Source of the DNA: a virus
Lineage: Duplodnaviria; Caudoviricetes
Direction: 5' to 3' (one strand)
Length of the DNA stretch: 60,000 nt
IMG/VR virus record: IMGVR_UViG_3300033141_001695
Span: 1-60,000 of that record
Part shown: positions 5,387 through 47,948 of the stretch, in pieces
How the letters are laid out: each line of letters starts with the position of its first letter
Numbering within the stretch: position 1 is the stretch's first letter
The notes under the pieces: generated by a model
Databases searched by the model: none
What the model was told of the DNA's origin: nothing
What the model saw: only the letters and a program-made list of their open reading frames with translations
Made by a program: the position numbers and the translations under genes

Positions 5387-6508
5387 ATGGGAATTTTGCA
5401 AATTAGGGAAGCTAAAAAGGCTGGCTCCAGGACGGTTATAGGATTAGCTGGACCATCAGGAGCAGGGAAAACATATACAGCACTTTTATTGGCATATGGA
5501 ATGGTAAATCAAAATGCAAAAAAAATCGGTTTGCTTGATACTGAAAATAAAAGAGGTTCGCTCTATGCTGACATTCTCAAGACACCTAACGGAGATATTG
5601 ACCGTTTTTTAATCGGGGATCTGCACCCGCCGTTTTCCCCATCAAGATACAGTGAAGCTATTAAGGAATTTGAAGCATCTGGAATTGAAGTTCTGGTCAT
5701 TGATAGCGTAACTCATGAATGGGAAAGTATCGGTGGTTGTGATGAGATTGCCAACAATACATCTGACAAAATGGCAAATTGGAAATTGGCTAAACGGGAA
5801 CACAAGGCGTTCATGTCGACCATGTTGCAATGTGATATGCATATTATCGTTTGTATTCGTGCCAGGGAAAAAACATCTTACAGAAACCCTAAAGCCCTTA
5901 TCAGTTTAGGTATTCAACCCATTCAAGAAAAAAACTTTATGTATGAAATGACAGCTTCTATGATGCTGTGCGATGAAGGCAAAAGCCAAAACCTAATAAA
6001 AATGCCGGAAGATTTAAGACCGATTTTGGGGAGGCGTGACGGATATTTGGGTGTCAATGACGGGGTTATGCTGAGAGATTGGGTTGCCGGAATCGTTCCA
6101 GAGGATCGAGAGGTTGAGCGATGGAAAAACAAACTGCTGATGAACACCAACCAGGGGATAGGTCACATTCAAGAATGTTGGGGTAAGGTTCCTGTTGATA
6201 TGCAGACGAAGATAGGAGAGCCTTTCCGAGAATCATTGTTTGAAGCGGCCAAAGGTTATGATGACATGAATAGTCAAAATGGTCAGGACGGTGACAATAC
6301 TGACCTTGCTAAAAAACTCAGTAGCCTCAAGCCCAAGGAGCCCGCATCCGAAATCCTTGCCGCACTTAAAGACCGCCTCGCAAAAATCCCTGCGGACATC
6401 CGCAAGCAAGCCGCAGAAGATGTGAACTGTTCTGAGGATACCGAGAGCGTGAATGAATTGCAGTTTTTAATCGAGCAATGCCGGAAACTGCTGAAGAAAG
6501 CTGATTGA
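5387..6508 (+). CDS. AAA ATPase, Sak4/AAA_24-like recombination protein
   Basis: Walker A GPSGAGKT, LLDTENKRG, Walker B VLVIDSVTHEW; paired with the exonuclease. Confidence 0.85.
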   Translation: MGILQIREAKKAGSRTVIGLAGPSGAGKTYTALLLAYGMVNQNAKKIGLLDTENKRGSLYADILKTPNGDIDRFLIGDLHPPFSPSRYSEAIKEFEASGIEVLVIDSVTHEWESIGGCDEIANNTSDKMANWKLAKREHKAFMSTMLQCDMHIIVCIRAREKTSYRNPKALISLGIQPIQEKNFMYEMTASMMLCDEGKSQNLIKMPEDLRPILGRRDGYLGVNDGVMLRDWVAGIVPEDREVERWKNKLLMNTNQGIGHIQECWGKVPVDMQTKIGEPFRESLFEAAKGYDDMNSQNGQDGDNTDLAKKLSSLKPKEPASEILAALKDRLAKIPADIRKQAAEDVNCSEDTESVNELQFLIEQCRKLLKKAD

Positions 6509-11766: not shown

Positions 11767-14700
11767 TTACCTTTTCCGCTTCATCTTTAAATAATGTAAC
11801 CGATACCATTTTAAAGCAATATTATAGCTCTTTCGTTGTTTTTTATTCAGTGATCTCAAAAACTTACGTCTTAATCGTTTTGGAACAGAAGCCAATGGAT
11901 GAGTTGCTTTTATGCTTATTTTAATGCCACCAAGCGTTCCACCTAACTTTTTATATTTTTCCAAATACCGTTTAGCTGCACTTAAATCTCCATACTTCAG
12001 AGATTGTTTGTAATAATATAAAGCATTGGATTTTGTTGTCGGAATAAATCCAGGCTTTTCAATGCCTTCTTTATCCAAAAAATCGAATGATGCTTTCTTA
12101 ACATCATAATACGCCGATTCCCCAGGATCGGACGTATAGAACCCCAAAGATAGCACGTCATTAAAAAGACGTTCCGTTATATCTTCTCCTCTCTTTGGTT
12201 TTCCGGCTATCCACTTATAGGGTAGATTCATGGAGAATGTCCGTGCAATATGCTCCCATTTATCACGGATAGGACGAGGGAAAAATGGGTCCGGATAAGT
12301 CGTTCTCCCAAGAACAGTTTCTCCAAGAGTTTTAATTATAGGCCTTGAACCATGCCATATTTTTATTACAGGCGCCTTGAAAGCTTCTTCCATTTTTGTA
12401 CCAATTGGTTGTATCCCTTTTGCCACATCGCTTATGTCATGGACAATATCTTCAGCACCAAACCATGACAGCGTATCGCTTAATGCTCCTTGGAATCGCA
12501 AAGAAATGATACTACCATCTTCCCTCCTACCTAAAATCAAATGAAGCTGTCTGCGTTGAGCTTCCCCCAATTCTTTTTCTTCGTCCGGAAAGAAGGTCAT
12601 ATTCCACAATATGACAGCGCCGTATAAAGCAGTTGCTTTCAATCCTAATTTGGTTGCTTTCCATGCCATAGCACCAGATACAACTTTTGTGCTTTTGCCT
12701 TCATGCGGAAGGTTTTGAAGTAATCTCACATATCTTGGGGCATTGATTTCTTGCCATGACCAGAACGGGATCATGTGCGCTCTGAGCCATTGCCCTGCCT
12801 GTGAAATATTTCCGTAATCACCGATTAATTCTCGCGCTAATTTTGCAGCCATTTCATCGGACGTTGCGCTTTCAGCCATCTTTTGCAACTCCGCCCGAAT
12901 GGAAACACCATTGAGATTGATCCCGGGCTTTTTACCTTTTGCAATTTCATCTTTGAAATATCGGAAAGCTGCAAGCCTGAGAAGATTTTCTCGATAAGTT
13001 GTATATTGCACTGCACTTCGCCAATATTTTTGTATAAGATTTGGCTTTTCTCCAAGCAACATTGACATGTGCTTGTCATGGGATAATTGACTAGTCACTT
13101 CAGCAACTTCCTGAATAGACCATCCAGAACCTAATACATCTAATTTATACGATTGATCTATTTCAGCTTGAAGTTCATCTGATATCTTTTTCTTTTTGAG
13201 TTCCTGCCATAAATCCTTAGTGGCTTTTGGAAAATAATTTTTTATAATTCGCGGTTCATAAGCAAGGATGATATCTGAATCGCCAGAAGTATTATTGATA
13301 TTGTATTTTATCCATCGGAACGGATTCATCAATATCCATTTTTTCCATGCACTAATCATAGTTACCGATGCTTTTTCTAAGACATTATCTTCAGGAAACT
13401 TTCTGAACTCATCCATTGTTAAGGCTAATTCTTGTGGAATTACCCATGTTTCATCGATACCTCGGGCTAAAATCTGTTTGACATCTTCCGGCTTTAACTG
13501 GCTGGTTCCTTCTTGAATTTCCATTAACATTCGGTCTGTAATAGAGTTGGCTTTAAACCATGCCGTTCCTGGTCTTGGTTTCCAAGTTGTGTAGCCTTCA
13601 GGGATTAGTTTTGTCCAATCTTTTATTTCCTTGGCCTTGGCTTCTGCTTTTAAACTTGGGACAATATTGGCTAAGTCCTTGATTCTGTCTAATGTTTTCT
13701 TTGTTTCAATCTGAGATAAAGCTTGAGCTATTACCTCAAATTCAGAATCAACATATTGAGTGTTGTAATCTTTGATGGAACCTTTACGGGCTATCTGCCA
13801 ACCTTTTCTATGAGCACGAACATCTTTTGCCGATGTTCCCGTACCTGGTTTGTAATCCTCACCCATGGCCTTGGCCAATTGGTATTCCATTACCTGATGG
13901 TGAAAATAATCATCATATTTCATTACATCTTCAGAAAGCAATTTATTTTCAACCAATTCTTTCTTGAGCGAATGGTTAAATTCCCTACGTCTTTTCAAAG
14001 CTTCCTTTATTTTTGGATCCTTTTCGGCAATCTTATTCAGATAATCATAATATGACTTAACGTCTTTTCTGTCTTTAAACCCAAAAGGCAATTCTTCCTT
14101 GTCTGCAAGCAAGCCATTATCAATATCACGAATCATATCACCCATGATAATATGCATGGTAAAGAAATCATATCTTTTTGGTGTCAATATTCGCAAAAAA
14201 TTATCAATGGCAGCACTCGCCCTTCTGCGTGAATCTGTAGGTATATTGGAATATATCCGTAAAATATTGAGATAATCACCATGTGTTTTAGGGTCAAGGT
14301 GTTTGTGTGTCCGTTTAAACGCTTGATAAGCTTTGGTAAATCCCCGTTTAGCTTTGTCTATCAACTTTGGTTTTGGGATACCTTTGGCCAAACCGATGCG
14401 CTCTTTCTGTTTGTCTGTTCGTCCATAAAGTGGATCTGCGTCTATTTCTGGTGTATCTTTTTTGACGCTATAGAGGATGTCTGCCTCAGTCGCAACTTCA
14501 TCCCTTACTTCTGATATTATTTTACCGGTTTCGATATCACGAACAACTCCTCTTACAGTTCTTATCCCCATCTTATTAATCACAAGATCAATAAAGTCAG
14601 CAATCTTCTGAAGTATCCTTTGGATAGGTCGAATTTGTGCATCCCTGGTCTTAAACGCTTCTTCAATAAACTTTGCTCTCGTCTCTTCGTTGGGCGACTG

Positions 14701-17700
14701 TCCTTTACGTTTAATGGCTTTATTCAGCGCAGACATATCTTTAGTGTCAAGGATTCCTGACTTTTCAAGAAAATGCGTAAATTCATGGTCAATAGTCCAT
14801 CTATTCCCTACGCCTTCAACAATATTAATCGATTTGTCAGCATGATCATAGAAGCCTGCCACTTGCTCCCCAGGCTTGAGCCCGTGTCTTCCATATCCGA
14901 CATTGAGCGTTACACTTCCCGGGTCAACACCTTCAATACTGTTGATTATGAAACCCAAATTATTCCTGAACTTGACTGATATTTTTCCGTCCTCTGCTTG
15001 GGTTACTGCGGCGGTTTTGAATCGGGGGTGAGCCTTGATTGATTCCAAGTTGATTTGGGTTAAGGATGGCACTTCTGTTATGGCGTAGACTTTTGGTTCT
15101 TTCCTCAAACCAATAAAAGGCTTAACCTCGATTTCAGGATGATGCTTTTTAAAATAAGCTTCTTTTACCGCTTGAATTGTTTCAGCTTTTTTAACTCGTA
15201 TTTCTTTCCCGGCCTTTGTCGTTTTGATCACTTGCCATTTACTGACAAAATCGTTTGCCTCTTTTAAATCATCAGTGAAAAGCTTAACATTAAAGGTTTT
15301 GCCTTGTGTTATTATTTCTTTGGCAACTTCTTTCGGCTTTGCGGGTTCTTCGGCCACGGGCTTAATTTTGGCTCGTTCAATTCTGCCTGGTTCGCCTTCC
15401 TTACGGATTGGCTCATCACCTGGTCGAAAACCGATAATTTCCTGTTGGGCTTTTCCATAATATTGTTCCTCTACTTTTTGGATGGCATTTTCAATAATTT
15501 CCGATGGAGATATTTCGGCATCATCTTCAAACAAGGCTTTTGTTTGAGCATCCATCTTAATTCTTCTGATGGCTTTTGCGGATTCGCTGAACACAAGACC
15601 CATTCGTTTTGCACTTCTGATGTTTTCATTAAGAAAACGGGTTGTTTTATGAACCTCTTCCGGGATCTGTTCAAACATGCCGATTTGCGAAAGGATCGTA
15701 TCTATCGGTTCTCCGGTTCTACGGGATTGCCTTATCAGCTTTGCCGCTGCAATGATATTGCTTGATACTTCTGACGCTGCACCGGTTCTCCCTTTAACAG
15801 CTTTTGCCTGGATAAAATGCGGAGCAGCCACGTTCAGGGCATTAAGAATGGTTTTAATGTCCGGGTCCGCTTCCTCGGCAATCAGAGTCAACAATGTATC
15901 ATCATTGTACGCCTTGTGAAAAATAGCCATTTGTATTCGATCAATCAACTGCTTAGTGTACCGGCCATCTTCTGTTAAAAAACCTGCGGCCTCGCTTGGT
16001 CCCAACTGCTTGATGAACCGATTAATAAAAGTAGAATTGCTCCTTGCTGTTATATCCCCTTCGTCGGACGGTTTGAACGTGGATAAGTCCGCATCGGTGA
16101 GTTTTTCAGCATCATTCTTGGCAACTTCAACAGGTGACATTCTGGCAACTTCATCCTGATTGGCACGTTTGGCAAAGTCCACCCGGTCAACATCTGTCTT
16201 GCGAGCCCGTACCAAAACAGGCTGATCAAGAGCTTCGATATCCTCTTTTTTCAGCCCAAACTTTTCAGCATTGGCGGTGAGCCATTCTTTATATTTTTGT
16301 CCTATATCACGCCCGTATGCCTTCCTGATAGCAATAGTTCGTCCATTGCCGGACTCAACCACCATGTCATCACCAACAATCGGAGCCCCTGATGCAACGC
16401 TGGCAGACTCGCCCAACCGTTCAGGATTCAACTTTTTTGCCATCTCTTCAATTTGAAGCTTCATGGCAGATCGTTCCCGGTCACGGGGTTGCATCTCTTG
16501 TGGGTATGCCTTGTTTATAGCCAAAGTGTCGGTATGGGAGGTTATCAAGTTATTGGCATTGGTTACGGCGTATTGTGTTTTGATAGGAGTATTGTCGCTG
16601 AGATATGAAGTTGATTCTTTACCTTTCTCGGCCACTGGCGGCACTACGATTTCCGGCTCTTTAGCAACGGGAGGCTCAACCTTCAGATCAACTTCAACCA
16701 ACTCAACCTTCTCCATCCTCGGTGCATACGTCTTCCCGTCCTCCCCTCGTACCGTATAGGAAGCCTTGTTCACCTTCTCAACGGTTCCCCGCATCGGCTT
16801 CCCGCCTTTGCCTGTCCATGTGACTGTGGCGCCGGGGATGATCTCTTTAGGTTCTACAACCTCGGGTTTCTCTTCAATGGGTGGTTTTGGTTCAGGCAGC
16901 TTTTTTTCTTCAATCCCAAGTCTTTCTTTATAATTATGAATCAGCCTTTCATTCTCTCTATAATTTTCGTATTCATCTCCAACGCCAGCTTCTTTATATA
17001 ATTGCCTTGCTTCCAATAATCTTTGCAATGCATTTTTGGGTTTTAATCCATAAGACTTTTTGTGAAGTTTATCTGCTTTGGCAACTATGTCAGTTTTTGG
17101 CTTTATTGGTTCAATTTTCACTTCAGGCTCAACAATAGGTACAACTTTCGGTTCAGGCTTAACTTCTTCAGGCTTCTTTTTCGGTAACGTCTTTTGAGCG
17201 TATTCCCGCGCATACCGACCTACGGCATCATCCGTATCGTAGAACTTTTCAACCGCTTCCATGGATCCAAGTTCTTTGACTTTGTTTTCGATGAAGGGTT
17301 TGTTGATTTCGGGTGCTGGTTTAGGTTCTTCAGGTTTTACTTCAGCTTCCGGCAACGGCTCGACTTTGGCCTCTTCAGGTTTTGGCTCTACGGGAGGCAC
17401 AGGTTTCTCTTCCGGTATTTCCTCAACAACGGGCGGCGCAGGTTCAGGCACAACTTCCGGTGGTATTACCGCTTCCGGTTCAACCCTCGCTTCTTCTCGT
17501 CGTAATTCCTCGTCACTGGCCGCTCTTCTGGCTGCCTCTGGGAATTGAATATCCTCGCGGCTAACTCTTTCGCCCTCTTCAACGGCAATCCTTGGCGCTG
17601 GAACTTTTTTTTCAGCTTCACGTATTTCTCTGGCATATTCTTCCCCCCTTTCTATTTCTGGTCTTGTAGGTTCAACAGTTTCGACTTTTGCAAATCTCGG

Positions 17701-19518
17701 TGCGTATTTTTTACCATCCTCACCCTTAACGGTATAGGATGCTTTGTTTACTTTCTCAACGACTCCGCGTATCGCCTTGCCGTCTCTATCTGTCCAGGTT
17801 ACGGTTGTCCCTGGCGGAATTGCTTCTGTCACTGGTTCTTCGGGAATGATTCCTTCGGGCAATGTGGGTTCTATTTCTTCAACCAATTCATCTTGAATCT
17901 CTTGTGCGGCTTGTCTCCTTTGAAGCCTGATATTTTCTGTAGCGTCTATTCTGGATTCTGGATCTGTGACATATTTTTTTGCAGCAATATCACGAACCAT
18001 CATCCCGGCTTTGGCTGCTCCACCCATCACCGTAGTTGTTAAAAATACTGAAGGTGCAACTTCTCGAAGTGATTTCAAATGAGCCACGGGATCTGTCCAC
18101 TCTCTTTTTTCACCACCTAAACCAGCAGCATATTCAATATTAGACTGCCCCATCTGCGTTAATTCTTCTGTCACCAATTCAGTGCCATAAAGCGCACCTA
18201 ATTTTGTGATTAATCTTGAAATAATATTTTCACCCAAAACCGGAGCCATCCTTTTCAATGGGGTGGCTATTATCTTCAAACCCGTAGCTTGTCCTATGGC
18301 TTCCGGCAAAGCCTCCCAAAGTCCGTATTTCTGGGCAAGATTGCCGAAATCTTCTTTTAGCTTAGTTTCCTCATCAAGTGTGAGTGTCTTCCCGGTTCTT
18401 TTTAATTTTTCTTCATTTTGAACTTCAAGGTACCTCTTCATGAAATCATAAGAAGCCATGTTATAGGCAGCTTTACCGGCTGCTGCCGTACCTGCCGCCC
18501 ATGCAGCCGGTCTTGCACCAGGAATGGGAGCCATTGCAGTAGGCAACCCGACGCCTACACCGGCTAAAGCAGACAACCCAGAGAACGCCAAATTCTCAGG
18601 AAGCTGTGCAACGTCTCTTTCTGATATTCCTGGAAATATCCTTTCTTCGCCATATTGCCTTGAAAATTCTTCTGATTGTTTTTGGGCTTTTTCATATTGC
18701 TTATCAAACCAATCTTGATTGACAATACTTGCACCTTTCCAACCTTGAACCGCTGCGGCAGATTTCCCAAGCATTTGACGAGGAAGCTTTGTTAGACCTT
18801 TAGCGAATATCTTTAATCCTTCAATTGGGTGAAGTGAACCTGTCCTTTCAGGGTCTTGTTTTTTTTGTTGGCTATATATTTTGTCGATCAAAGAACCTAC
18901 GTCTCGTTTCCAAGGATCTATATATCCAAATGCACGTTTCCATTCAGGGGATCGTTGTATCCCTGCTCTGGCCAAACCTCTTGTTGTTGGTTGTTTGGCC
19001 TCTCTTATGGTTGTCGGTTGAAATTCACCACGCACAGTTGGTTGTTGAATCTCCCCGGGATAATGTTTTGAAATATTTTTAAGATATTGCCTCGTCTCAT
19101 CTGCATGGCGACCGGTAACCTTGTGGAGATTTTCAAGCCATTTATCTCCATGGGCTTTTATGGCCTTGTCCACATTCCCAGGTCCAGCGTTGTAGGCGGC
19201 GGATGCTTTTAAGGGATCTCCACCATATTTTTTCAAATTCTGAGCAAGGTACTTGGTCCCGCCCATGATACTTTGTTCTGGATCAAACGGATCTGTTACG
19301 CCCAAGTCACCAGCAGTCGCATCCATGATTTGCATTAAACCCTTCGCGCCGGCGCTTGATATGGCCTTGGGATTGAAATTACTTTCCGATTTGATTATGG
19401 CCTTGATATAATTAGGGTCAACTCCATATTCGGAAGAGGCCGAAGCAACAATGTCATCAATATTGGATGATTGTTTTTTCAATCCGGTTGTTTCCATGAT
19501 TAAGCCTTGATTAGCCAT
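11767..19518 (-). CDS. Large polyvalent internal-virion/ejection protein: lytic transglycosylase, ddrB-like ParB, zincin metallopeptidase and helical C-terminus
   Basis: SLT motifs IKSESNF...AKGLMQIM...AAYNAGPG; ddrB-ParB-like QPRDR...GAPIV...VESGNGR; HEFTH (14773-14787); Pro/Glu-rich linker; last of the internal-protein genes. Confidence 0.85.
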   Translation of the reverse strand: MANQGLIMETTGLKKQSSNIDDIVASASSEYGVDPNYIKAIIKSESNFNPKAISSAGAKGLMQIMDATAGDLGVTDPFDPEQSIMGGTKYLAQNLKKYGGDPLKASAAYNAGPGNVDKAIKAHGDKWLENLHKVTGRHADETRQYLKNISKHYPGEIQQPTVRGEFQPTTIREAKQPTTRGLARAGIQRSPEWKRAFGYIDPWKRDVGSLIDKIYSQQKKQDPERTGSLHPIEGLKIFAKGLTKLPRQMLGKSAAAVQGWKGASIVNQDWFDKQYEKAQKQSEEFSRQYGEERIFPGISERDVAQLPENLAFSGLSALAGVGVGLPTAMAPIPGARPAAWAAGTAAAGKAAYNMASYDFMKRYLEVQNEEKLKRTGKTLTLDEETKLKEDFGNLAQKYGLWEALPEAIGQATGLKIIATPLKRMAPVLGENIISRLITKLGALYGTELVTEELTQMGQSNIEYAAGLGGEKREWTDPVAHLKSLREVAPSVFLTTTVMGGAAKAGMMVRDIAAKKYVTDPESRIDATENIRLQRRQAAQEIQDELVEEIEPTLPEGIIPEEPVTEAIPPGTTVTWTDRDGKAIRGVVEKVNKASYTVKGEDGKKYAPRFAKVETVEPTRPEIERGEEYAREIREAEKKVPAPRIAVEEGERVSREDIQFPEAARRAASDEELRREEARVEPEAVIPPEVVPEPAPPVVEEIPEEKPVPPVEPKPEEAKVEPLPEAEVKPEEPKPAPEINKPFIENKVKELGSMEAVEKFYDTDDAVGRYAREYAQKTLPKKKPEEVKPEPKVVPIVEPEVKIEPIKPKTDIVAKADKLHKKSYGLKPKNALQRLLEARQLYKEAGVGDEYENYRENERLIHNYKERLGIEEKKLPEPKPPIEEKPEVVEPKEIIPGATVTWTGKGGKPMRGTVEKVNKASYTVRGEDGKTYAPRMEKVELVEVDLKVEPPVAKEPEIVVPPVAEKGKESTSYLSDNTPIKTQYAVTNANNLITSHTDTLAINKAYPQEMQPRDRERSAMKLQIEEMAKKLNPERLGESASVASGAPIVGDDMVVESGNGRTIAIRKAYGRDIGQKYKEWLTANAEKFGLKKEDIEALDQPVLVRARKTDVDRVDFAKRANQDEVARMSPVEVAKNDAEKLTDADLSTFKPSDEGDITARSNSTFINRFIKQLGPSEAAGFLTEDGRYTKQLIDRIQMAIFHKAYNDDTLLTLIAEEADPDIKTILNALNVAAPHFIQAKAVKGRTGAASEVSSNIIAAAKLIRQSRRTGEPIDTILSQIGMFEQIPEEVHKTTRFLNENIRSAKRMGLVFSESAKAIRRIKMDAQTKALFEDDAEISPSEIIENAIQKVEEQYYGKAQQEIIGFRPGDEPIRKEGEPGRIERAKIKPVAEEPAKPKEVAKEIITQGKTFNVKLFTDDLKEANDFVSKWQVIKTTKAGKEIRVKKAETIQAVKEAYFKKHHPEIEVKPFIGLRKEPKVYAITEVPSLTQINLESIKAHPRFKTAAVTQAEDGKISVKFRNNLGFIINSIEGVDPGSVTLNVGYGRHGLKPGEQVAGFYDHADKSINIVEGVGNRWTIDHEFTHFLEKSGILDTKDMSALNKAIKRKGQSPNEETRAKFIEEAFKTRDAQIRPIQRILQKIADFIDLVINKMGIRTVRGVVRDIETGKIISEVRDEVATEADILYSVKKDTPEIDADPLYGRTDKQKERIGLAKGIPKPKLIDKAKRGFTKAYQAFKRTHKHLDPKTHGDYLNILRIYSNIPTDSRRRASAAIDNFLRILTPKRYDFFTMHIIMGDMIRDIDNGLLADKEELPFGFKDRKDVKSYYDYLNKIAEKDPKIKEALKRRREFNHSLKKELVENKLLSEDVMKYDDYFHHQVMEYQLAKAMGEDYKPGTGTSAKDVRAHRKGWQIARKGSIKDYNTQYVDSEFEVIAQALSQIETKKTLDRIKDLANIVPSLKAEAKAKEIKDWTKLIPEGYTTWKPRPGTAWFKANSITDRMLMEIQEGTSQLKPEDVKQILARGIDETWVIPQELALTMDEFRKFPEDNVLEKASVTMISAWKKWILMNPFRWIKYNINNTSGDSDIILAYEPRIIKNYFPKATKDLWQELKKKKISDELQAEIDQSYKLDVLGSGWSIQEVAEVTSQLSHDKHMSMLLGEKPNLIQKYWRSAVQYTTYRENLLRLAAFRYFKDEIAKGKKPGINLNGVSIRAELQKMAESATSDEMAAKLARELIGDYGNISQAGQWLRAHMIPFWSWQEINAPRYVRLLQNLPHEGKSTKVVSGAMAWKATKLGLKATALYGAVILWNMTFFPDEEKELGEAQRRQLHLILGRREDGSIISLRFQGALSDTLSWFGAEDIVHDISDVAKGIQPIGTKMEEAFKAPVIKIWHGSRPIIKTLGETVLGRTTYPDPFFPRPIRDKWEHIARTFSMNLPYKWIAGKPKRGEDITERLFNDVLSLGFYTSDPGESAYYDVKKASFDFLDKEGIEKPGFIPTTKSNALYYYKQSLKYGDLSAAKRYLEKYKKLGGTLGGIKISIKATHPLASVPKRLRRKFLRSLNKKQRKSYNIALKWYRLHYLKMKRKR

Positions 19519-37904: not shown

Positions 37905-38546
37905 TTATCTCCTTCTCGGCGGGAATCTCTCTATCCCCATTAATACACATTGCAAGGCTCGAACTGCTGGCAATATCTGTTTTTTCTTATCATCCTGCTT
38001 GATATGTTGAAGCTGATTGTAAAGCTCTGCATTCTGATCATGTCGTAATAATCGCTGCTTGATCTTGGCCCAAATCAGATGTTCTGCGTCCTGATCCTCT
38101 CCCCATGGTACTTCGATCAACTGGGGTTTGAGGCCTATCGCCGGGGAGCGCAAAATATCCAACCGCCATTTTTTTGAGAACTCATAATTCTGGTGCCAAT
38201 AATATTTCCGGCAATAGTAATTCGAGAACGCATTATTGATGAAATTGGAGATTCCCGGATAGTCAATCACTTGTGTTTCGCGGTTAATGATAGGTTCCAC
38301 AACCAAAAACTGTTGCTGCTCGAATATCGTGATAACCCCTGTTTTCAGATTCTTTCCTGCAACAACGATATACCCCTGAGAATCAACATATCCGTCCTTC
38401 CGGAATGTGACCGGCCAGCATATACCGCCCCGGATATCAAACTCGGCTTGCGGGTAAATCAATTCTTCATCGTCAAAGTCGAAATACAGGGTGACGCTTT
38501 GATCTTCATTCAGGATTGCGGTTCGTGGTTTTTCAATTATCATCAA
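37905..38546 (-). CDS. Hypothetical protein, possible degenerate terminase RNase H-like domain
   Basis: Lies between TerL and portal; RGGICWP...GYIVVAG...IFE and PAVRAL resemble TerL nuclease motifs without the Asp residues. Confidence 0.5.
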   Translation of the reverse strand: MMIIEKPRTAILNEDQSVTLYFDFDDEELIYPQAEFDIRGGICWPVTFRKDGYVDSQGYIVVAGKNLKTGVITIFEQQQFLVVEPIINRETQVIDYPGISNFINNAFSNYYCRKYYWHQNYEFSKKWRLDILRSPAIGLKPQLIEVPWGEDQDAEHLIWAKIKQRLLRHDQNAELYNQLQHIKQDDKKKQILPAVRALQCVLMGIERFPPRRR

Positions 38547-41362
38547 ACTGCCCTCTCCGGCATATTCGCCAAATCCGTCGGATCAATCAACCTGTCATGC
38601 TCGACAAATGTCAGACACAGTGCATCTGCCCTGTCCGGTGATCGTTTAAGTGCCTCTTTCATAACATCTTTTTTCATAACTTCGATCTTGCCATTAACGA
38701 CCTCGTAAGTCGGTGTTGCAAGCTCTTCGAGAAGTATTTCATCCGGGGGTAACATCGCATCATCTGTCCGCAACCATTCACGAACCGACCACCACATCTG
38801 GTCCCGCAGAATCTTGAACTCGCCTATCTCAATTTCAAATGTAGGGCTCTTTGCAACCTTAATCGGATAGACATTGTTACAACCATTCCGTACCATCTGC
38901 GGTGCCGTTCCAGATCCCACGCCTGTTGCATCCACATTGCACTCGATTACGTCCCGCTTTTTCATCTCTACGGCTGCTCTATCGCCCGTAACAAGCGGAT
39001 CAACACCATCCCAGGTCAAAAACCGTTCAACATAATTGCCGTATCGGAAACAGGTGCAGTTCGCATCAGTACCGAACTCTGCAACGTCTTGGCCCATAAT
39101 TGCAGATGTGCCTTGTGGCGGAACTTCTCCATGCTCTGCTACATACACATCCCATCTTGATCGGGCTGCTGAAATCCAGGCTGTTGATATGAGTTGATTG
39201 CTCCCCTTGGCTGGATACCTGCCAAGAACCATATAGCTGAAAGAAGGTTCCATGATCTTGTAATATCCAGCTTCCAACATCGGATATTCTTTTCCTGCGT
39301 GACTTTTCGCAACCGCACCAGCCAAAAAGTCCGGCAATTCAAAACATTCATTATCCGATGTTTCATCATCAGCTAACGGTCGACACCATTCATTAATCCT
39401 GCGAACAGTCGTATCGCGGGTAACAGCGCCGGGAACAACATCATCACCGGTGATTACGTTGGGATGTCCAAATGCCGACAAATAGACGACATTGGCCTGG
39501 CCGTCTCTGATCTTCCGGTACGCTTCCCCGATCTGTGCCTTGGGATTGAACATGATTAACATTCTGACATGACCACCAGACATGCAACCGTCCGAACCTT
39601 TATAAACTTCGTCAGGAACCGCATCGCCTTCGTCAAAAATAAACAGCATGTTAGGAGCGTGTTTTCCACTGTTATGTTCAACTAAATTTGTCAAATATGT
39701 GTTATTTTTCGGAACATGAACCCTAACAGTAGGTTTTTTGCTTAACAATTTAATAGATTTGATCTTATCCCAACAAAAACCATTATGTTTGCTCTTTCTC
39801 CATACGGCATAAGATCGCCTATTCTTAGCATAAATTACACATTCAGATAGAGCATCTTCTTTGCCATAGATTCCTATTAAGTCAGCAAACTTAATAATAT
39901 CTGCTGCACGGCAAATTGTGAGAAACCAGTAATATGCAGATTTTTTTATTCCTTTATGCATCCAAGTTTTTTTGCACGTTGACACCTTTGAGGATATTCC
40001 AAATTTAAAGAGAAGTCGCTGAATGTCTCTGACAAGACCTTCGCTTTTACTGGTGTACCCTATTTCTGCTTTTTTATACGCACCACAATTACACATACAA
40101 GCATGGCCATCCGTAGAAAAAAGCCGGCTTAAAAATAAGGCTATACAGTTTTGATTTGACTGATTAATTTTCCCAGGAACGCACTTTGTGGCGCTGTCTT
40201 TACCAAGTAAACCGTGATCCCTGAGTAAATTCAAAACCACATTGCTTCCTTTTAACCCTGAACCGTCTCCATTTACTTTCCAGCTATACTCAGCAAGGTT
40301 GTGCTCTATGACTCTCGCCCCTAAAACTGAAACAGCCCCCTTAAACTCAGATAGTTGCTTATTGTTTTCTTGAATAAACAAAACTCTTTTACAGTTATTT
40401 ATACAACCATCTCCAATAAGATACGCCATAACTTTAATCTCGTTGGAGTCTAATTCCAGAGAACCAAAATTAAAAGATGTATCTTCTGGAACGAGGATGG
40501 CATCTCCAACTTGAATATCTTCTACTTTTACCCACTTTTCATCCTGAACAAGATAACGCCTTCCATATTTTTTTTTACTTTGTTTAATCTTCCCAACATA
40601 AAAAGGATGTTGCCCTGTCCGATTAATTACTGCTCCATTTGATAAGGTAATTTTATAAACCGGTTGTATGCCATTATCGGAAAACTCTGCCGTAGCTGGT
40701 TCTTTTATAAATTCAGGGTTCACACTAATAACATCGGCAGTTTTTCCAATTAAGCTTTTATACGAAACCAATTCGCCTGTAGTTAATTCAAACAGATCGT
40801 CTGCATCTGCACAAAATTTGCTCTCTCTTTCGTGCGATGTGCCGGATGTAGGGATAGTTACGCCTTTGATGAAACTGACTTCCTCTTCATCCTCCATATC
40901 ATCCATCATGGTCTGGGAGCTTAATGGGGGTGTTGAGGAAATACTGAGACGGGTAATGTAATCGTTTGTGAACATCCGCTTGTTTTTTCTGACCACATTG
41001 CCCATTTCACCCCAGAGCAGGGTTTCCAAGTTGTCAATCGGCGGGGCTGCGGCTGTAAAAACTTTTGCTTGCGGAAATGCTTTATAGAACCAAGTTGCAA
41101 TTCGGGCGGCTGAATGGGTTTTTCCTGTTCCCGTAGCTGAGACAGCAATGGTAATCGGATAATCCCGGACCGACTCCATCAGGATTTTGACTTCATCCGT
41201 ATAAGTTTCTCCCAGGACATTCTCACCAAATCCTATGGGGTCGGCCTGATAGTCCGTGTATCCACGTTTCGACTTGAGGTAGTCAATCGCTTCAGGGGAT
41301 AAATTATCCCTTACAGCATCAGCTAAAATACCCATTTTGTCAGGATTTAGGCTTATCATCAT
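38543..41362 (-). CDS. terL: Terminase large subunit, intein-containing
   Basis: SATGTGKT Walker A, FIFDEG Walker B, MFNP coupling motif, MGQDVA, VDATGVG, SPDRADAL. Confidence 0.93.
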   Translation of the reverse strand: MMISLNPDKMGILADAVRDNLSPEAIDYLKSKRGYTDYQADPIGFGENVLGETYTDEVKILMESVRDYPITIAVSATGTGKTHSAARIATWFYKAFPQAKVFTAAAPPIDNLETLLWGEMGNVVRKNKRMFTNDYITRLSISSTPPLSSQTMMDDMEDEEEVSFIKGVTIPTSGTSHERESKFCADADDLFELTTGELVSYKSLIGKTADVISVNPEFIKEPATAEFSDNGIQPVYKITLSNGAVINRTGQHPFYVGKIKQSKKKYGRRYLVQDEKWVKVEDIQVGDAILVPEDTSFNFGSLELDSNEIKVMAYLIGDGCINNCKRVLFIQENNKQLSEFKGAVSVLGARVIEHNLAEYSWKVNGDGSGLKGSNVVLNLLRDHGLLGKDSATKCVPGKINQSNQNCIALFLSRLFSTDGHACMCNCGAYKKAEIGYTSKSEGLVRDIQRLLFKFGISSKVSTCKKTWMHKGIKKSAYYWFLTICRAADIIKFADLIGIYGKEDALSECVIYAKNRRSYAVWRKSKHNGFCWDKIKSIKLLSKKPTVRVHVPKNNTYLTNLVEHNSGKHAPNMLFIFDEGDAVPDEVYKGSDGCMSGGHVRMLIMFNPKAQIGEAYRKIRDGQANVVYLSAFGHPNVITGDDVVPGAVTRDTTVRRINEWCRPLADDETSDNECFELPDFLAGAVAKSHAGKEYPMLEAGYYKIMEPSFSYMVLGRYPAKGSNQLISTAWISAARSRWDVYVAEHGEVPPQGTSAIMGQDVAEFGTDANCTCFRYGNYVERFLTWDGVDPLVTGDRAAVEMKKRDVIECNVDATGVGSGTAPQMVRNGCNNVYPIKVAKSPTFEIEIGEFKILRDQMWWSVREWLRTDDAMLPPDEILLEELATPTYEVVNGKIEVMKKDVMKEALKRSPDRADALCLTFVEHDRLIDPTDLANMPERAV
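39671..40813 (-). mobile_element. Intein with LAGLIDADG homing endonuclease (381 aa)
   Basis: Junctions KF/CADAD... and ...LVEHN/SGKH; block B TGQHPF; LAGLIDADG motifs MAYLIGDGC and LSRLFSTDGH. Confidence 0.92.
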
Positions 41363-43350: not shown

Positions 43351-43517
43351 AAATATTCTCCTGCTATTTTTATAATCTAAAAAACGCTCGAAAACAACAC
43401 TTTTTTCATTATTTAGATTCTTTTTTTTGTATTTCCGATTTCCAAAGCTGTAATTTCACTATGATTGTTTAATTATCTCACTAACTTATAAATAATTCAT
43501 TTTGTGAATAATTTTTC

Positions 43518-43545
43518 TTGACATGAATTATTAATAGTGTATGAT
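43518..43545 (+). promoter_or_regulatory. Sigma70-type promoter of the small-ORF operon
   Basis: TTGACA-N16-TATGAT in an AT-rich region; the inverted repeat AATAATTCAT/ATGAATTATT (43491-43500, 43523-43532) brackets the -35. Confidence 0.7.
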
Positions 43546-43587
43546 GAAATCAAACAGTGAGGGAATTAACAACAATAAGGAGGCGGG

Positions 43588-43878
43588 ATGAAAAAGCAAA
43601 TAATGAAACGAGCATGGGAAATCAGAAAAGAAGCCGCAGAAAAGTTATGGAAGGAAAGCAATGTGGATAACAAAATAATCGCAAATATTATCGGAACTGC
43701 AAAAAATGGATGTAACGGAATATTAATAAGCGCCCCAATTGACGGATATCCGGAAGTTGTTAGAGTTATGTGGGAAGACGGCTCATGGGCACCCGGATTT
43801 ATAGACTATGAAGCTTTTGAAATTTGGGCATGCCCTGAATTTAACACATACGTGGATAGCGTTGAGCTTATCAGTTAA
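43588..43878 (+). CDS. Small early protein
   Basis: SD AAGGAGG; N-terminus IMKRAWEI.K. Confidence 0.75.
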   Translation: MKKQIMKRAWEIRKEAAEKLWKESNVDNKIIANIIGTAKNGCNGILISAPIDGYPEVVRVMWEDGSWAPGFIDYEAFEIWACPEFNTYVDSVELIS

Positions 43879-43922
43879 CCCAATCGCCCCGGCAACGGGG
43901 CTTAGAGCAAAAGGAGGAAATC

Positions 43923-44135
43923 ATGACAAAAACGAGCATAAAAAATTACGAAGAAATTGACTATCAGGACGCTGAAAATGACATGATAACTTTTGACTAT
44001 GCCGGCCATACATTCACGCTCAACCCAGACGACATACACCAAGTTTCAGCCGACGATGATGGAAGTGTAGTTTTTGACCCTCGCACCATCCTGGATGTAG
44101 ACGAAGACAATCAGATTCTTTTTATTGAAAAATGA
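43923..44135 (+). CDS. Small, highly acidic early protein
   Basis: SD AAGGAGG; 70 aa, very Asp/Glu-rich. Confidence 0.75.
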   Translation: MTKTSIKNYEEIDYQDAENDMITFDYAGHTFTLNPDDIHQVSADDDGSVVFDPRTILDVDEDNQILFIEK

Positions 44136-44219
44136 CTATACAAGAACTTTTATTAAAATCCTTATTGATAATAACTAACCGCCCCGGCAACGGGGCTTAA
44201 TTGAAAAGAAGATCGAAAT

Positions 44220-44357
44220 ATGAATTCAAAAAAATACTATGCTGAAATAGAATGGATTCTTGATTCAGACAGATTTTCCAGGCCAATCGGAAAGCAAAAT
44301 CGACTTAAAAAGATAAGTCGCTTAAGAAAAGCAAGAAGATTACGAAGAAATATCTAA
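44220..44357 (+). CDS. Small basic protein (45 aa, not in ORF track)
   Basis: MNSKKYYAEIEWILDSDRFSRPIGKQNRLKKISRLRKARRLRRNI, fitting exactly between hairpins 2 and 3. Confidence 0.65.
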   Translation: MNSKKYYAEIEWILDSDRFSRPIGKQNRLKKISRLRKARRLRRNI

Positions 44358-44399
44358 ACACAACCCGCCCCGGCAACGGTGCTAAAAGGGGGTTAGGTC

Positions 44400-44558
44400 A
44401 TGGAAAAAAGAATAGAGCAAGCAATCAAAAACGCAACACCCTTCACCGGATCAAATGAATCTTGGGTTTTCTATCATGGTAACAAGGCGGAAGAAAAAAA
44501 ACAAAAATATATAAACGAATGCAACGCAAGACTTGAAAAATTAAAAAAGAAATTATAA
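44400..44558 (+). CDS. Small protein (52 aa, not in ORF track)
   Basis: MEKRIEQAIKNATPFTGSNESWVFYHGNKAEEKKQKYINECNARLEKLKKKL after hairpin 3 and SD AAGGGGG. Confidence 0.65.
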   Translation: MEKRIEQAIKNATPFTGSNESWVFYHGNKAEEKKQKYINECNARLEKLKKKL

Positions 44559-44605
44559 CCCCAACCTGTCATAGGCACGGCTCAAACTGCCTGAAAGGAA
44601 GTTTC

Positions 44606-44812
44606 TTGAACCGATTCAAAGACCTGCACACAACTCAACAGATAGCCGAGCAGACCGGGCTTACATCTGAGCGGATATGCCAGCTGTATAAAGAGTTGGA
44701 AGGCCACAGACTGGCTCAAAAGATGGGACGCTTCACGGTGTATCATATTGACGCTGTGGACTATATTAATAACAGGCCGGAAAAAAGGGGGAGAAGGAAA
44801 AATGAAAACTGA
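44606..44812 (+). CDS. Small HTH DNA-binding protein
   Basis: TTQQIAEQTGLTSERICQL...AQKMGR...RPEKRGR (HTH_17/MerR-like); TTG start after AAAGGA. Confidence 0.7.
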   Translation: MNRFKDLHTTQQIAEQTGLTSERICQLYKELEGHRLAQKMGRFTVYHIDAVDYINNRPEKRGRRKNEN

Positions 44813-45011
44813 AGCAGTGACGTATAAACAGTGGGACAGCTACGCAAAAAAAATTGAAAGGAAAAATCTAAAAGAAAGTGGCGAATCCCTTACGTTTTCC
44901 AGCATCGCGCAGAAAGCGAGTAACTACATTGTAGAAAGCCAACCAGATAACAAGATAATCATCGCAAAAAAGGGCTGGCGCGAGGCAATGAAGAGGAAGG
45001 AACAGATATAA
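44802..45011 (+). CDS. Small hypothetical protein
   Basis: Likely start MKTEAV at 44802 after GAAGGA. Confidence 0.55.
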   Translation: MKTEAVTYKQWDSYAKKIERKNLKESGESLTFSSIAQKASNYIVESQPDNKIIIAKKGWREAMKRKEQI

Positions 45012-45032
45012 TAAACAGATCAAATATTAACC

Positions 45033-45063
45033 AAGGCCCCGATGCAAACCGGGGCCTTTTTTT
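45033..45063 (+). terminator. Intrinsic terminator ending the small-ORF operon
   Basis: AAGGCCCCG-atgcaaac-CGGGGCC followed by a T-run; faces the convergent Rha gene. Confidence 0.88.
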
Positions 45064-45067
45064 GTTA

Positions 45068-46015: not shown

Positions 46016-46618
46016 TTATATTGATACTTTTTCGTAAGCTTGATATTTTAATTTTTGTCTGGCTACCCTACTTACTGATGCTTGGGATGAGCCATATTTC
46101 ATAGCTATCTCTCTTTGGCTCATGCCTTGCGACAATAATTCTAATATCTTAGATTCATATTTAATTAGCTTTGATTGAGCTTTGGACTTGTTTTTCCTCC
46201 AAGAGTCTTTTCTTTCCCACTTAGCAGCATTTCTTAGTATGTTTCTATGAGACTCACTCATTCTACGACCTAATTTATACTGGTGTTTTATATTTTCAGA
46301 ATGCTCAATCCATTCCAAATTATCTACATTGTTGTTTAATTTATCTCCATCTATATGATTCACCTCAATATTTATGCCTTTTGGCTTTTCTAAAAATGCA
46401 TTAGCAACAAGACGATGGATCATTACTGGATATTTCTTGCCACTTTTATTGAGCGAAACCATCGCATAACCAGGAGTTCCCATTTGAAGACTTAAAAACA
46501 TACCCGTATGACTCTTTTTTGGGTAGCTCCATATACGCCCATCTTGAGTAACTGCGTATAGTCCTTCAAATCCATTAATATCAACCAAGCCTTTCATCTC
46601 TGTTTTCATTCTTCGCAT
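46016..46618 (-). CDS. NUMOD4-HNH homing endonuclease with C-terminal HTH
   Basis: I.GFEGLYAV...GRIWS, IHRLVANAF, VNHIDGDKLNNNVDNLEW...EN. Confidence 0.92.
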   Translation of the reverse strand: MRRMKTEMKGLVDINGFEGLYAVTQDGRIWSYPKKSHTGMFLSLQMGTPGYAMVSLNKSGKKYPVMIHRLVANAFLEKPKGINIEVNHIDGDKLNNNVDNLEWIEHSENIKHQYKLGRRMSESHRNILRNAAKWERKDSWRKNKSKAQSKLIKYESKILELLSQGMSQREIAMKYGSSQASVSRVARQKLKYQAYEKVSI

Positions 46619-47459: not shown

Positions 47460-47948
47460 TCATTTTTCCATCCTTCTTCCACGTCTCAATTCATTCAAAT
47501 CGTCCCAAACCTTAGAAGCCAGCATATAACATGACAATATAGTATCTTCAATTTCTTCCATAAGCGATTGAGCATTCTTTTTTGTTGGGGCCTCGCTCCA
47601 ATCATTCAAAGCCTGTTTGGTCTCATGCGCTTCTTCAAATATTTTTTCAAGACATCGCCGGGTCGGATACCGTTCCTCTTCAAATGCTATCTTGTGATCA
47701 TGCCGCCTTGCTGAGTTCTCGGCAAGTTGTGGGAGGACATGGAAGCCATATCTGACACCACAACGGTTATTCCATGCGTCAATAGCATCTTGTTTATTTT
47801 CACAATAACCATTCAATGCCAACCCACAACATCCACTATCCCTTTCGCCTGAACATGTTACAACATATGCAGTAGAATAAATATTGGTTAATGTTGATAC
47901 AAGACCATCGCTTCTGCAAAACGGACACGGTAATAATTTATCGTTCAA
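47460..47948 (-). CDS. Lar-family restriction-alleviation domain fused to a MazG-like helical domain
   Basis: LLPCPFC...V.C...C...AIDAWNNR; C-terminal KIFEEAHE...EEIED. Confidence 0.7.

Follow-up and report, generated by a model that had tools for sequence, protein, structure and literature searches.

The sequence analyzed here (the window) is a 60,000-nucleotide (nt) stretch of viral DNA (Duplodnaviria; Caudoviricetes), comprising positions 1 to 60,000 of the IMG/VR virus record IMGVR_UViG_3300033141_001695, a complete genome of ~60 kb with a 114-bp terminal direct repeat. Almost all the genes of the window are carried by the − strand, and positions 43518–45063 constitute an island of small genes on the + strand, several of which are separated by near-identical G/C-rich hairpins. 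The original prediction, made from the sequence alone, described this island as a counter-oriented operon built as an array of cassettes, and a single + strand operon, served by one strong promoter within a − strand genome, was indeed found. The features of the island are as follows (positions in the window):

43487–43536, + strand: AT-rich upstream element and imperfect inverted repeat across the −35 hexamer (25-nt arms, 76% complementary), a candidate operator
43518–43545, + strand: sigma-70-type promoter (TTGACA, 16 nt, TATGAT; 11/12 consensus positions)
43559–43570, + strand: conserved leader motif GAGGGAATTAAC in an unstructured 5' untranslated region (UTR), aligned to the leaders of the relatives
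43588–43878, + strand: open reading frame 1 (ORF1), 96 aa, an orphan with no family match
43886–43901, + strand: hairpin 1 (hp1), six G-C pairs and a GCAA tetraloop, no U-tract (exact GCCCCGGCAACGGGGC, −14 kcal/mol)
43923–44135, + strand: ORF2, 70 aa, a very acidic orphan (18 D+E, 4 K+R, charge about −14)
44181–44196, + strand: hairpin 2 (hp2), no U-tract (exact GCCCCGGCAACGGGGC, −14 kcal/mol)
44220–44357, + strand: ORF3, 45 aa, basic (pI 11.5), with an arginine-rich C-terminus and a weak Shine–Dalgarno sequence (SD); no match in the family libraries
44367–44382, + strand: hairpin 3 (hp3), no U-tract (GCCCCGGCAACGGGGC with one mismatch, G to T in the 3' arm)
44400–44558, + strand: ORF4, 52 aa, basic; no match in the family libraries
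44606–44812, + strand: ORF5, 68 aa, winged helix-turn-helix (HTH) protein of the Xis/HTH_17/MerR type according to its model and family alignment, with a basic RGR-rich tail and a TTG start
44802–45011, + strand: ORF6, 69 aa, with an 11-nt overlap with the ORF5 stop; two homologues known
45033–45065, no strand assigned: intrinsic terminator separating the island from the convergent Rha gene, with the same stem core as the hairpins

The predicted consensus promoter matches at 11 of 12 positions, a score reached by only three sites genome-wide, this one included (25 sites reach at least 10/12), and promoter-like sites in the region are not enriched as a class (11 found versus 10.9 expected). The minimum free energy of the 5' UTR is 0. 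All six ORFs of 45–96 aa that had been predicted are present, and in each case (6/6) the annotated frame was the best of the six according to the codon usage of the phage itself. A recognizable SD precedes five of them, the SD of ORF3 being weak. The six ORFs have no similarity to one another, and their GC content ranges from 31% to 46%.

Three hairpin copies had been claimed, and two of them (hp1 and hp2) are exact and restricted to the island, whereas the third differs by its G to T mismatch, and the preferred fold of hp3 pairs its own C-run with the SD of ORF4. No copy of GCCCCGGCAACGGGGC would be expected by chance (expected number 0, 100 shuffles), and no further copy was detected in the 60-kb genome outside the island. 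As had been noted, each hairpin lies between a stop codon and the next SD and lacks a U-tract: the distances from the stop codon are 7 nt (hp1), 45 nt (hp2) and 9 nt (hp3), those to the next ATG are 21, 23 and 17 nt, and the bases immediately 3' of the stems are TTAGAG, TTAATT and TAAAAG. The common unit of hp1 and hp2 extends over 35 nt (83% identity, 20 nt identical in a row) and includes the region of the next SD. There is no hairpin ahead of ORF1, and no promoter site of at least 10/12 was found in the three gaps containing hairpins, where the only site (9/12) is upstream of hp2. A 22-codon micro-ORF running through hp2 was rejected, since its frame is not common to hp3. The terminal terminator had been said to have a related stem, and it has the same six-pair core, with an 8-nt loop containing GCAA and a run of seven T (−18.1 kcal/mol, z −4.07). 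A U-tract directly following a G-C hairpin, as in intrinsic terminators, is thus present at 45033–45065 and lacking at the three internal hairpins. A search of Rfam gave nothing close to any gathering score, and the island DNA had no match among 50,697 cultured-phage records.

ORF5 belongs to a rare family, with 23 distant homologues among 1.84 billion representatives, mostly of 64–75 aa, in which the HTH is conserved and the tail is basic and RGR-rich. In viral contigs, the ORF5 homologues corresponded to two further lineages. The first comprises L181, L182, L183 and L180, which represent one phage (99.6–100% identity), L181 being located within a provirus (G002); the second, L184, is located within a complete genome of 53.8 kb (G003). 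The capsid protein of G003 is 34% identical to that of the window genome (G000), with no match for the large terminase subunit (TerL), and G002 matches neither in capsid nor in TerL. In both L181 and L184, a + strand island flanked by − strand genes combines small genes under a sigma-70-type promoter with hairpins that follow stop codons and lack a U-tract; its last gene is the ORF5 homologue, which is followed by a hairpin terminator (the two terminators have values of −21.0 and −18.6 kcal/mol). A three-way alignment of the promoter and leader contained 51 invariant columns, and the local scores (42, 49 and 65) exceeded the maxima obtained with 1000 shuffles each (35, 46 and 42). In comparisons with the promoter regions of L184 and of L181 alike, the promoter/leader window at 43484 scored highest among the 2030 windows of the genome. 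The region 43487–43536 can be aligned to the sequences upstream of the L184 and L181 promoters, and the counterparts of the leader motif are GAGGGAATAAC in L184 and GAGGGCTAAC in L181. Within this conserved frame the cargo is variable: comparisons of all cargo pairs by blastp gave matches of the ORF5 family only, plus a single weak local match over 28 aa between two first genes, ORF1 and its counterpart in L184 (11/28, pairwise E 3e-4).

The joints between genes follow a common layout in the three lineages. The three joints of L184 are a GCCCGG stem with a 10-nt loop, GCCCTGGGAAACCGGGGC (one G-U pair, GAAA loop) and GCCCCGGTTCGCCGGGGC (UUCG loop), and the joint of L181 is a UUCG hairpin. In all seven (7/7), the hairpin is separated from the preceding stop codon by 7–10 nt (45 nt for hp2) and from the following ATG by 16–23 nt, with a C/A-rich spacer 5' of the stem and an A-rich spacer and SD on the 3' side. 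The stems are GCCCCG(G) or one step away from it, and the loop is GNRA or UUCG on the sense strand in six of the seven joints and on the antisense strand in none. Over 63 nt, the identity between the modules of hp3 and L181 is 73%, the hp3 module being taken from the stop codon as far as the opening codons of the gene that follows. The hairpins are confined to the island in G000, G003 and G002; every ORF5 island seen carries the hairpin, whereas the hairpin is widespread without ORF5. It could be argued that these hairpins are relics, derived from morons with their own terminators whose U-tracts decayed under selection for read-through and which are now functionless. Their stem is the same as that of the working terminator, the same hairpin is a real terminator elsewhere, and the GC content of the ORFs spans 31% to 46%. 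However, copies without a function would have diverged within the operon, and their stem, loop class, spacing and flanks would not have been maintained in three lineages; we consider this explanation very unlikely.

A scan of viral contigs for GCCCCGGCAACGGGGC yielded at least 119 stretches, and the removal of matches less than 60 nt from the end of a locus and of duplicate contexts left at least 104 distinct contexts, from contigs with 33–71% GC. Among the matches listed, the 16-mer was followed by a T-run, as in a terminator, in 33 of 104 contexts, and in 24 others there was no T-run and an SD with a start codon came directly after it. For the 89 listed contexts in which each flank extends over at least 700 nt, we looked for frames of 60 codons or more that end no farther than 40 nt upstream: 52 contexts have such a frame on the GCAA strand alone, 6 on the opposite strand alone, 14 on both and 17 on neither; the same comparison for the 55 listed contexts with neither a T-run nor an A-run gave 32 versus 5. 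T-runs after the GCAA orientation were present in 29 contexts and A-runs upstream in 10, again among the matches listed. The 16-mer is therefore best described as a generic RNA hairpin following stop codons, with or without a U-tract. We rejected the idea that its frequency is unusual, as 223 other GC-stem tetraloop hairpins of the same class were counted in 1.5 Mb of retrieved viral DNA, and a number of at least 119 is not clearly exceptional according to a rough estimate of the collection size. In an unrelated 64-kb phage (G001; loci L178 and L179), the hairpin occurs four times, as two T6 terminators (one with a GAAA loop) and two U-less intercistronic joints, the latter sharing a flank of ~55 nt that includes the SD.

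These strand counts bear on the possibility that the hairpins act on the other strand, as weak terminators with G/U-rich tails that shield the lysis and structural genes from Rha and replication transcription. The island is located between the − strand replication/Rha block and the − strand endolysin–terminase–structural block, a terminator scan marked hp2 and hp3 as terminator-like on the − strand, and the conserved C/A-rich sequence 5' of the stems there corresponds to a 3' tail rich in G and U. However, the special tetraloops are present on the + strand only, the 16-mer follows genes of the sense strand by 52 to 6 and T-runs outnumber A-runs (29 versus 10, among the matches listed), and the tails contain few consecutive U. 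Antisense roadblocks are, in our opinion, improbable.

We suggest that the island exemplifies a portable accessory-operon frame, which would pass from one phage to another, unrelated one and carry different cargo in each, a proposal on which our own judgment is evenly balanced. The frame would consist of a promoter for the host RNA polymerase with its conserved upstream element and leader, small phage-specific cargo genes, an ORF5-family gene at or near the end, and an intrinsic terminator. Its standard joint would comprise a stop codon, a C/A-rich spacer of ~8–10 nt, a G-C hairpin of 6–7 bp with an extra-stable tetraloop, an A-rich spacer, an SD and an ATG. The RNA polymerase would be expected to read mostly through the joints, because the hairpins are terminator stems without a U-tract in an operon of the host polymerase. 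A function on the sense mRNA is suggested by the conservation of the loop class rather than of the loop sequence, by the sense-strand bias, by the fixed spacing to the SD and by the unstructured C/A- and A-rich flanks. On this mRNA, the hairpins could serve as barriers to 3' exonucleases, as protective ends after endonuclease cuts in the A/U-rich spacers, and as insulators keeping each ribosome-binding site (RBS) clear of the sequence of the neighboring gene; any cargo gene could enter a slot and still be expressed. As the joints are near-identical, they may also be natural sites for the exchange or loss of cargo by homologous recombination. Expression may be early, to judge from the promoter.

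Carvajevirus-like Klebsiella phages provide a comparison at closer range. They carry a counter-oriented island of small genes within the structural module, in which the promoter/leader and the second gene are conserved, whereas the first gene, located between them, is represented by four unrelated versions. The hairpin follows three of the four versions, in one of them with the loop flipped, and the fourth has no hairpin. In Klebsiella phage KP13-27 (L066, about 6005–6022), the loop is TTGC rather than GCAA at the position homologous to that of L009, L011 and L014, with the same stem. This comparison shows that cargo is exchanged among close relatives beside this same hairpin. The predicted variation of cassettes around the hairpin was thus observed in two distant lineages and in the Carvajevirus-like swap, but not among close relatives of the window island, none of which was found. 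The architecture of the island, together with the long-range comparison, lends support to the idea of a cassette array.

A further possibility is that the joints serve mainly, at the DNA level, as recombination handles for the gain, loss and exchange of cassettes, with any RNA role secondary. The 20 identical nt and the 35-nt unit common to hp1 and hp2, the differing cargo of slots with homologous joints in the three lineages, and the homology breakpoints at the hairpin in the Carvajevirus-like phages are consistent with such handles, the flipped loop of KP13-27 could be the result of recombination within the palindrome, and the window phage encodes an exonuclease VIII-like protein. There is also a precedent in the repeated stem-loops of T4-type phages, in the parts of the literature consulted (PMC2839356, PMC4122927). 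However, a DNA handle needs neither a conserved loop class (GNRA, UUCG) nor a conserved strand, homologies as short as 16–35 nt recombine poorly, we found no two close relatives distinguished by a cassette at the joints, and any conserved flanks would yield the same breakpoints. We regard recombination as the principal role of the joints as possible but doubtful.

The search for close relatives made use of several queries. The Rha protein gave no close relative in viral contigs, ORF1 gave a 20-residue match only, the ORF6 alignment gave no loci in genome contigs or viral contigs, and the ORF5 alignment gave none in genome contigs. TerL alignment queries gave 37 loci from metagenome contigs and 10 from viral contigs; none of these loci encodes an island ORF, the endolysin is present in only two, and repeated GC tetraloop hairpins are present in none, apart from an unrelated pair in L038. 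The contigs of the nearest TerL relatives, L019 and L057 (92–93%), both stop 97 nt upstream of TerL, and this common end may correspond to a variable region or to a genome end. In L030 and L053, which are distant relatives according to TerL, there is no counter-oriented island beside the endolysin; these two loci encode a sigma-70-family-like protein upstream of the lysis/packaging genes (L030 1543–2082, L053 2419–3000), for which no homologue was seen in the window.

Several observations weigh against the portable frame and the RNA role of its joints. No close relative covering the island was obtained with the Rha, ORF1, TerL and ORF6 queries, and turnover at these particular joints is accordingly not demonstrated. 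Only two comparator lineages were found, and they may not be fully independent, because a convergent gene for a MazG-like/NTP pyrophosphohydrolase lies after the island in each of them (L184 3560–3889, − strand; L181 4326–4610, − strand), where the window has Rha. The hp3 mismatch weakens the pattern, and the array is punctuated by hairpins in three gaps, whereas the fourth (44559–44605, before ORF5) has no significant hairpin (z −0.40), which corrects the original description on this point. The TTGC loop on the sense strand of KP13-27 shows that GNRA is not obligatory, and the C/A-rich 5' flank, as a G/U-rich tail on the other strand, would suit an antisense terminator. Finally, the ORF5 proteins are 42–55% identical across the lineages, yet the stem is almost invariant. 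A stem conserved beyond the needs of stability is better explained by sequence-specific recognition or gene conversion than by a purely thermodynamic role, and the near-invariance of the stem, its restriction to the island and the flipped loop of KP13-27 keep alive both the DNA-level readings and those involving a stem-binding protein or host factor.

One such reading is that the hairpins are operators, bound as RNA or duplex by ORF5, in the manner of Aca2 or Aca1, or by the arginine-rich ORF3, in the manner of N and boxB, with control of translation or elongation. The stem is near-invariant in the three ORF5 islands while the loops vary, the hairpins are limited to the islands bearing ORF5 (G000, G003 and G002), and ORF3 has an arginine-rich tail. 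The hairpins end 16–23 nt before the starts, and the RNA hairpins bound by Aca are placed ~20 nt before the acr start in the part of the Aca study consulted (PMC13551039). However, at least 104 other viral contexts contain the 16-mer, and the ORF5-family profile detected no homologue in 176 other loci, 126 of which had been retrieved for the hairpin. The conserved promoter motifs are unlike the hairpin, ORF1 is not preceded by one, and a change from GNRA to UUCG would break a loop contact of the boxB type. Moreover, no boxA-like motif (allowing up to one mismatch) was found within 43518–45063, and no homologue of ORF3 was found in the relatives. Operators of this kind therefore seem to us a remote prospect. 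A bolder proposal, which we offer as speculation and think distinctly unlikely, though less so than simple operators, is that ORF5 islands are an undescribed integrase-free cassette platform, a self-regulated "expression socket" transferred among unrelated phages and composed of the conserved promoter/leader, standardized joints of hairpin and ribosome-binding site, and an Xis/Cox-like gene. The joints would then have two roles, as recombination points where new cargo is loaded and as RNA operators by which the translation of each cargo gene is metered, either by the winged-helix protein or by a host factor.

An HTH gene near the end of the island had been predicted, and the ORF5 model (predicted local distance difference test, pLDDT, 84.3) has one strand, three helices and a beta-hairpin wing. 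The model of ORF6 (pLDDT 83.9) had no match in the fold search. The top Foldseek probabilities for ORF5 were 0.95–0.97 (mycobacteriophage Pukovnik Xis, TraN), with no match at E≤0.001, and lower-ranked matches included the RdfS excisionase and MerR-type and MarR-type proteins. HTH_17 was matched by two of 14 family members, and Tn916-Xis was also among the matches of the family. For the window ORF5 itself, the best Pfam match was Sigma70_r4 (E 8.8e-4, under the cut-off), the ORF5 profile gave generic HTH matches only against PDB sequences, and no informative N-terminal domain was found in the longer proteins of the family. In provirus G002, the island is divergent from a tyrosine integrase gene 0.8 kb away, and an excisionase role would fit the homologue there, as the integrase adjoins. 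No integrase was detected in G000 and G003, and an excision role is unlikely in these two phages for this reason; here, ORF5 is more likely to be a Cox/Apl-like regulator. The conserved element upstream of the −35 hexamer and the repeat spanning it are candidate binding sites for ORF5, which most likely regulates the island promoter, and autoregulation would follow from such binding.

The same features recall the operons of anti-CRISPR (acr) genes and their Aca regulators, and the original prediction favored an anti-defence function. In such an operon, ORF5 would be an Aca-type autorepressor of a dangerously strong promoter, an interpretation compatible with the portable frame. The near-consensus promoter with its inverted repeat does serve variable small orphans that precede a small HTH gene common to the lineages, and Aca proteins are described as HTH autorepressors acting on promoter inverted repeats (PMC13551039). 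In addition, ORF2 is strongly acidic, as inhibitors that mimic DNA often are. However, no cargo gene has a match in Pfam, PHROGs or NCBIfam, and the fold of ORF5 is Xis/MerR-like, with a homologue beside an integrase in a provirus, suggesting an excisionase. The words excisionase, winged and MerR are absent from the main text of the Aca paper (PMC13551039). The conserved HTH protein may therefore be an excisionase or a Cox-type regulator rather than an Aca, and an acr–aca operon is, in our view, a tentative alternative, about as doubtful as that of recombination handles.

The cargo itself offers little for comparison. ORF1–4 and ORF6 had no match at E≤0.001 in Pfam, PHROGs or NCBIfam, the nearest for ORF2 being DUF2283 (E 0.033, under threshold). 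ORF1 and ORF2 each retrieved only themselves from 5.8 billion clustered proteins, and the Atlas searches gave no usable lead for either. For ORF3 and ORF4, the negative result concerns the three family libraries, a homologue search having been made for neither. ORF6 has two homologues, with 61% and 55% identity. An anti-defence role of the cargo has no support from homology, and any role given to these genes would be conjectural.

To the right of the island, the − strand genes include those for a DnaB-like helicase, a second helicase and a DnaD/O-like initiator, which are replication genes; two Rha/Ant-type genes, an HNH homing endonuclease gene and a dCMP-deaminase-like gene are also on the − strand. 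To the left, in order, are the genes for an endolysin (GH108), two small proteins, a small-terminase candidate, TerL, the portal, the major head protein and a virion protein of 2583 aa, all on the − strand. The portal is 22–27% identical to those of Rhizobium, Roseobacter and Pelagibacter podoviruses. The search for an integrase gave no PF00589 match in the window genome (the control was positive in 14/14 genomes), and that for a T7-type RNA polymerase gave no PF00940 match, a weak negative, since the control genomes were equally silent. No tRNA was found in the tRNA search.

Other genes of the window deserve mention. TerL (38543–41362, − strand) has 939 aa and includes an insert of ~380 aa that is missing from the TerL of L019 and L057 (559 aa, 92–93% identical). 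The first residue of the insert is Cys, it ends in His-Asn followed by Ser, and it contains a LAGLIDADG-like stretch, features that make an intein harboring a homing endonuclease the most likely interpretation. Positions 46016–46618 (− strand), immediately to the right of the Rha gene, encode a free-standing homing endonuclease of the HNH/NUMOD4 type that has an HTH at its C-terminus, and the intein and this endonuclease show that the stretch is rich in mobile elements. The 2583-aa protein (11767–19518, − strand) has an N-terminal SLT transglycosylase domain and a DdrB-like ParB domain at residues 975–1107, and looks like a polyvalent virion protein, probably injected. Two DNA methyltransferase genes (345–926 and 1589–2827, − strand), one with a ParB-like N-terminus, and a weak match to Lar-like restriction alleviation (47460–47948, − strand; E 3.8e-7) are the only homology-based links to counter-defence in the genome, and all lie outside the island.

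Small orphan genes account for much of the "dark matter" of phages, and it was a conserved regulator adjoining variable cargo that led to the discovery of many counter-defence genes. If the ORF5 family, the promoter and the joints do mark a portable operon, they would provide a new search handle for cargo in otherwise unrelated phages, and the island would be a natural example of standardized intercistronic parts, each formed by a hairpin insulator and an RBS. The old question of whether repeated intergenic hairpins of phages serve RNA stability, gene exchange or both thereby becomes testable, and the natural loop variants (GCAA, GAAA, UUCG and the flipped TTGC) are ready material for such a test.

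The island resembles several known systems and coincides with none of them. It shares with intrinsic terminators and morons the G-C stem and the tetraloop, but the internal copies lack U and are directly followed by an SD and a start codon. Stable stem-loops between cistrons are also known from the malE-malF repetitive extragenic palindrome (REP) of Escherichia coli, the puf operon of Rhodobacter, the UUCG hairpins of T4 and the RNase III sites of T7, which shape segmental mRNA stability and relative expression. The copies of the island differ in that they are not host REP elements, are near-identical, occur nowhere outside the island and are accompanied, as they move, by a promoter and a gene for a regulator. 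RNase III sites of the T7 early type comprise about two turns of double-stranded RNA, and this candidate was rejected, the stems of 6–7 bp being far too short. A lambda-type nut site was rejected as well, as there is no boxA-like match and the loop becomes UUCG in homologous joints, the ORF3 tail being the sole point in its favor; so were hairpin promoters of the N4 type, used by a virion RNA polymerase, as the 2583-aa protein holds SLT and DdrB-ParB domains only. Integron arrays are similar in that a single promoter serves cassettes without promoters of their own, each gene being followed by a structured palindromic element. However, attC sites are long imperfect repeats recombined by an integron integrase, and an attC array was rejected, since the hairpins here are of 16–18 nt and the genome has no PF00589 match. 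Xis, Cox and Apl proteins are similar to ORF5 in size, fold class and basic tail, and the G002 homologue is near an integrase, whereas the window phage and G003 have no detectable integrase and the window ORF5 is under the Pfam threshold.

The remaining two systems were the only ones retrieved by a literature search for this architecture: the promoter-early stem-loop (PeSL) papers and the Aca paper. The acr–aca operons are similar in their strong promoter, small variable genes, terminal small HTH gene and promoter inverted repeat. According to the part of the source consulted, Aca1 and Aca2 bind RNA hairpins ending ~20 nt before the start codon, in addition to promoter repeats (PMC13551039). 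The island differs in having no Acr homology in general family libraries, an ORF5 of the Xis/MerR type, and hairpins that are intercistronic and repeated rather than located in the 5' UTR. The closest described element, as far as the consulted parts of these papers go, is the PeSL of T4-type phages, a repeated intergenic G/C-rich stem-loop placed between stop codon and SD beside small orphans of variable regions and implicated in modular exchange (Arbiol et al. 2010, PMC2839356; Comeau et al. 2014, PMC4122927). Each PeSL has its own sigma-70 promoter, and the stem-loop was a strong terminator in a reporter (PMC2839356). The island has in common with PeSLs the G/C-rich stem-loops between stop and SD beside orphan genes, but it has one promoter in all, its hairpins are U-less, its phage is not T4-like, and a regulator-type gene forms part of the unit.

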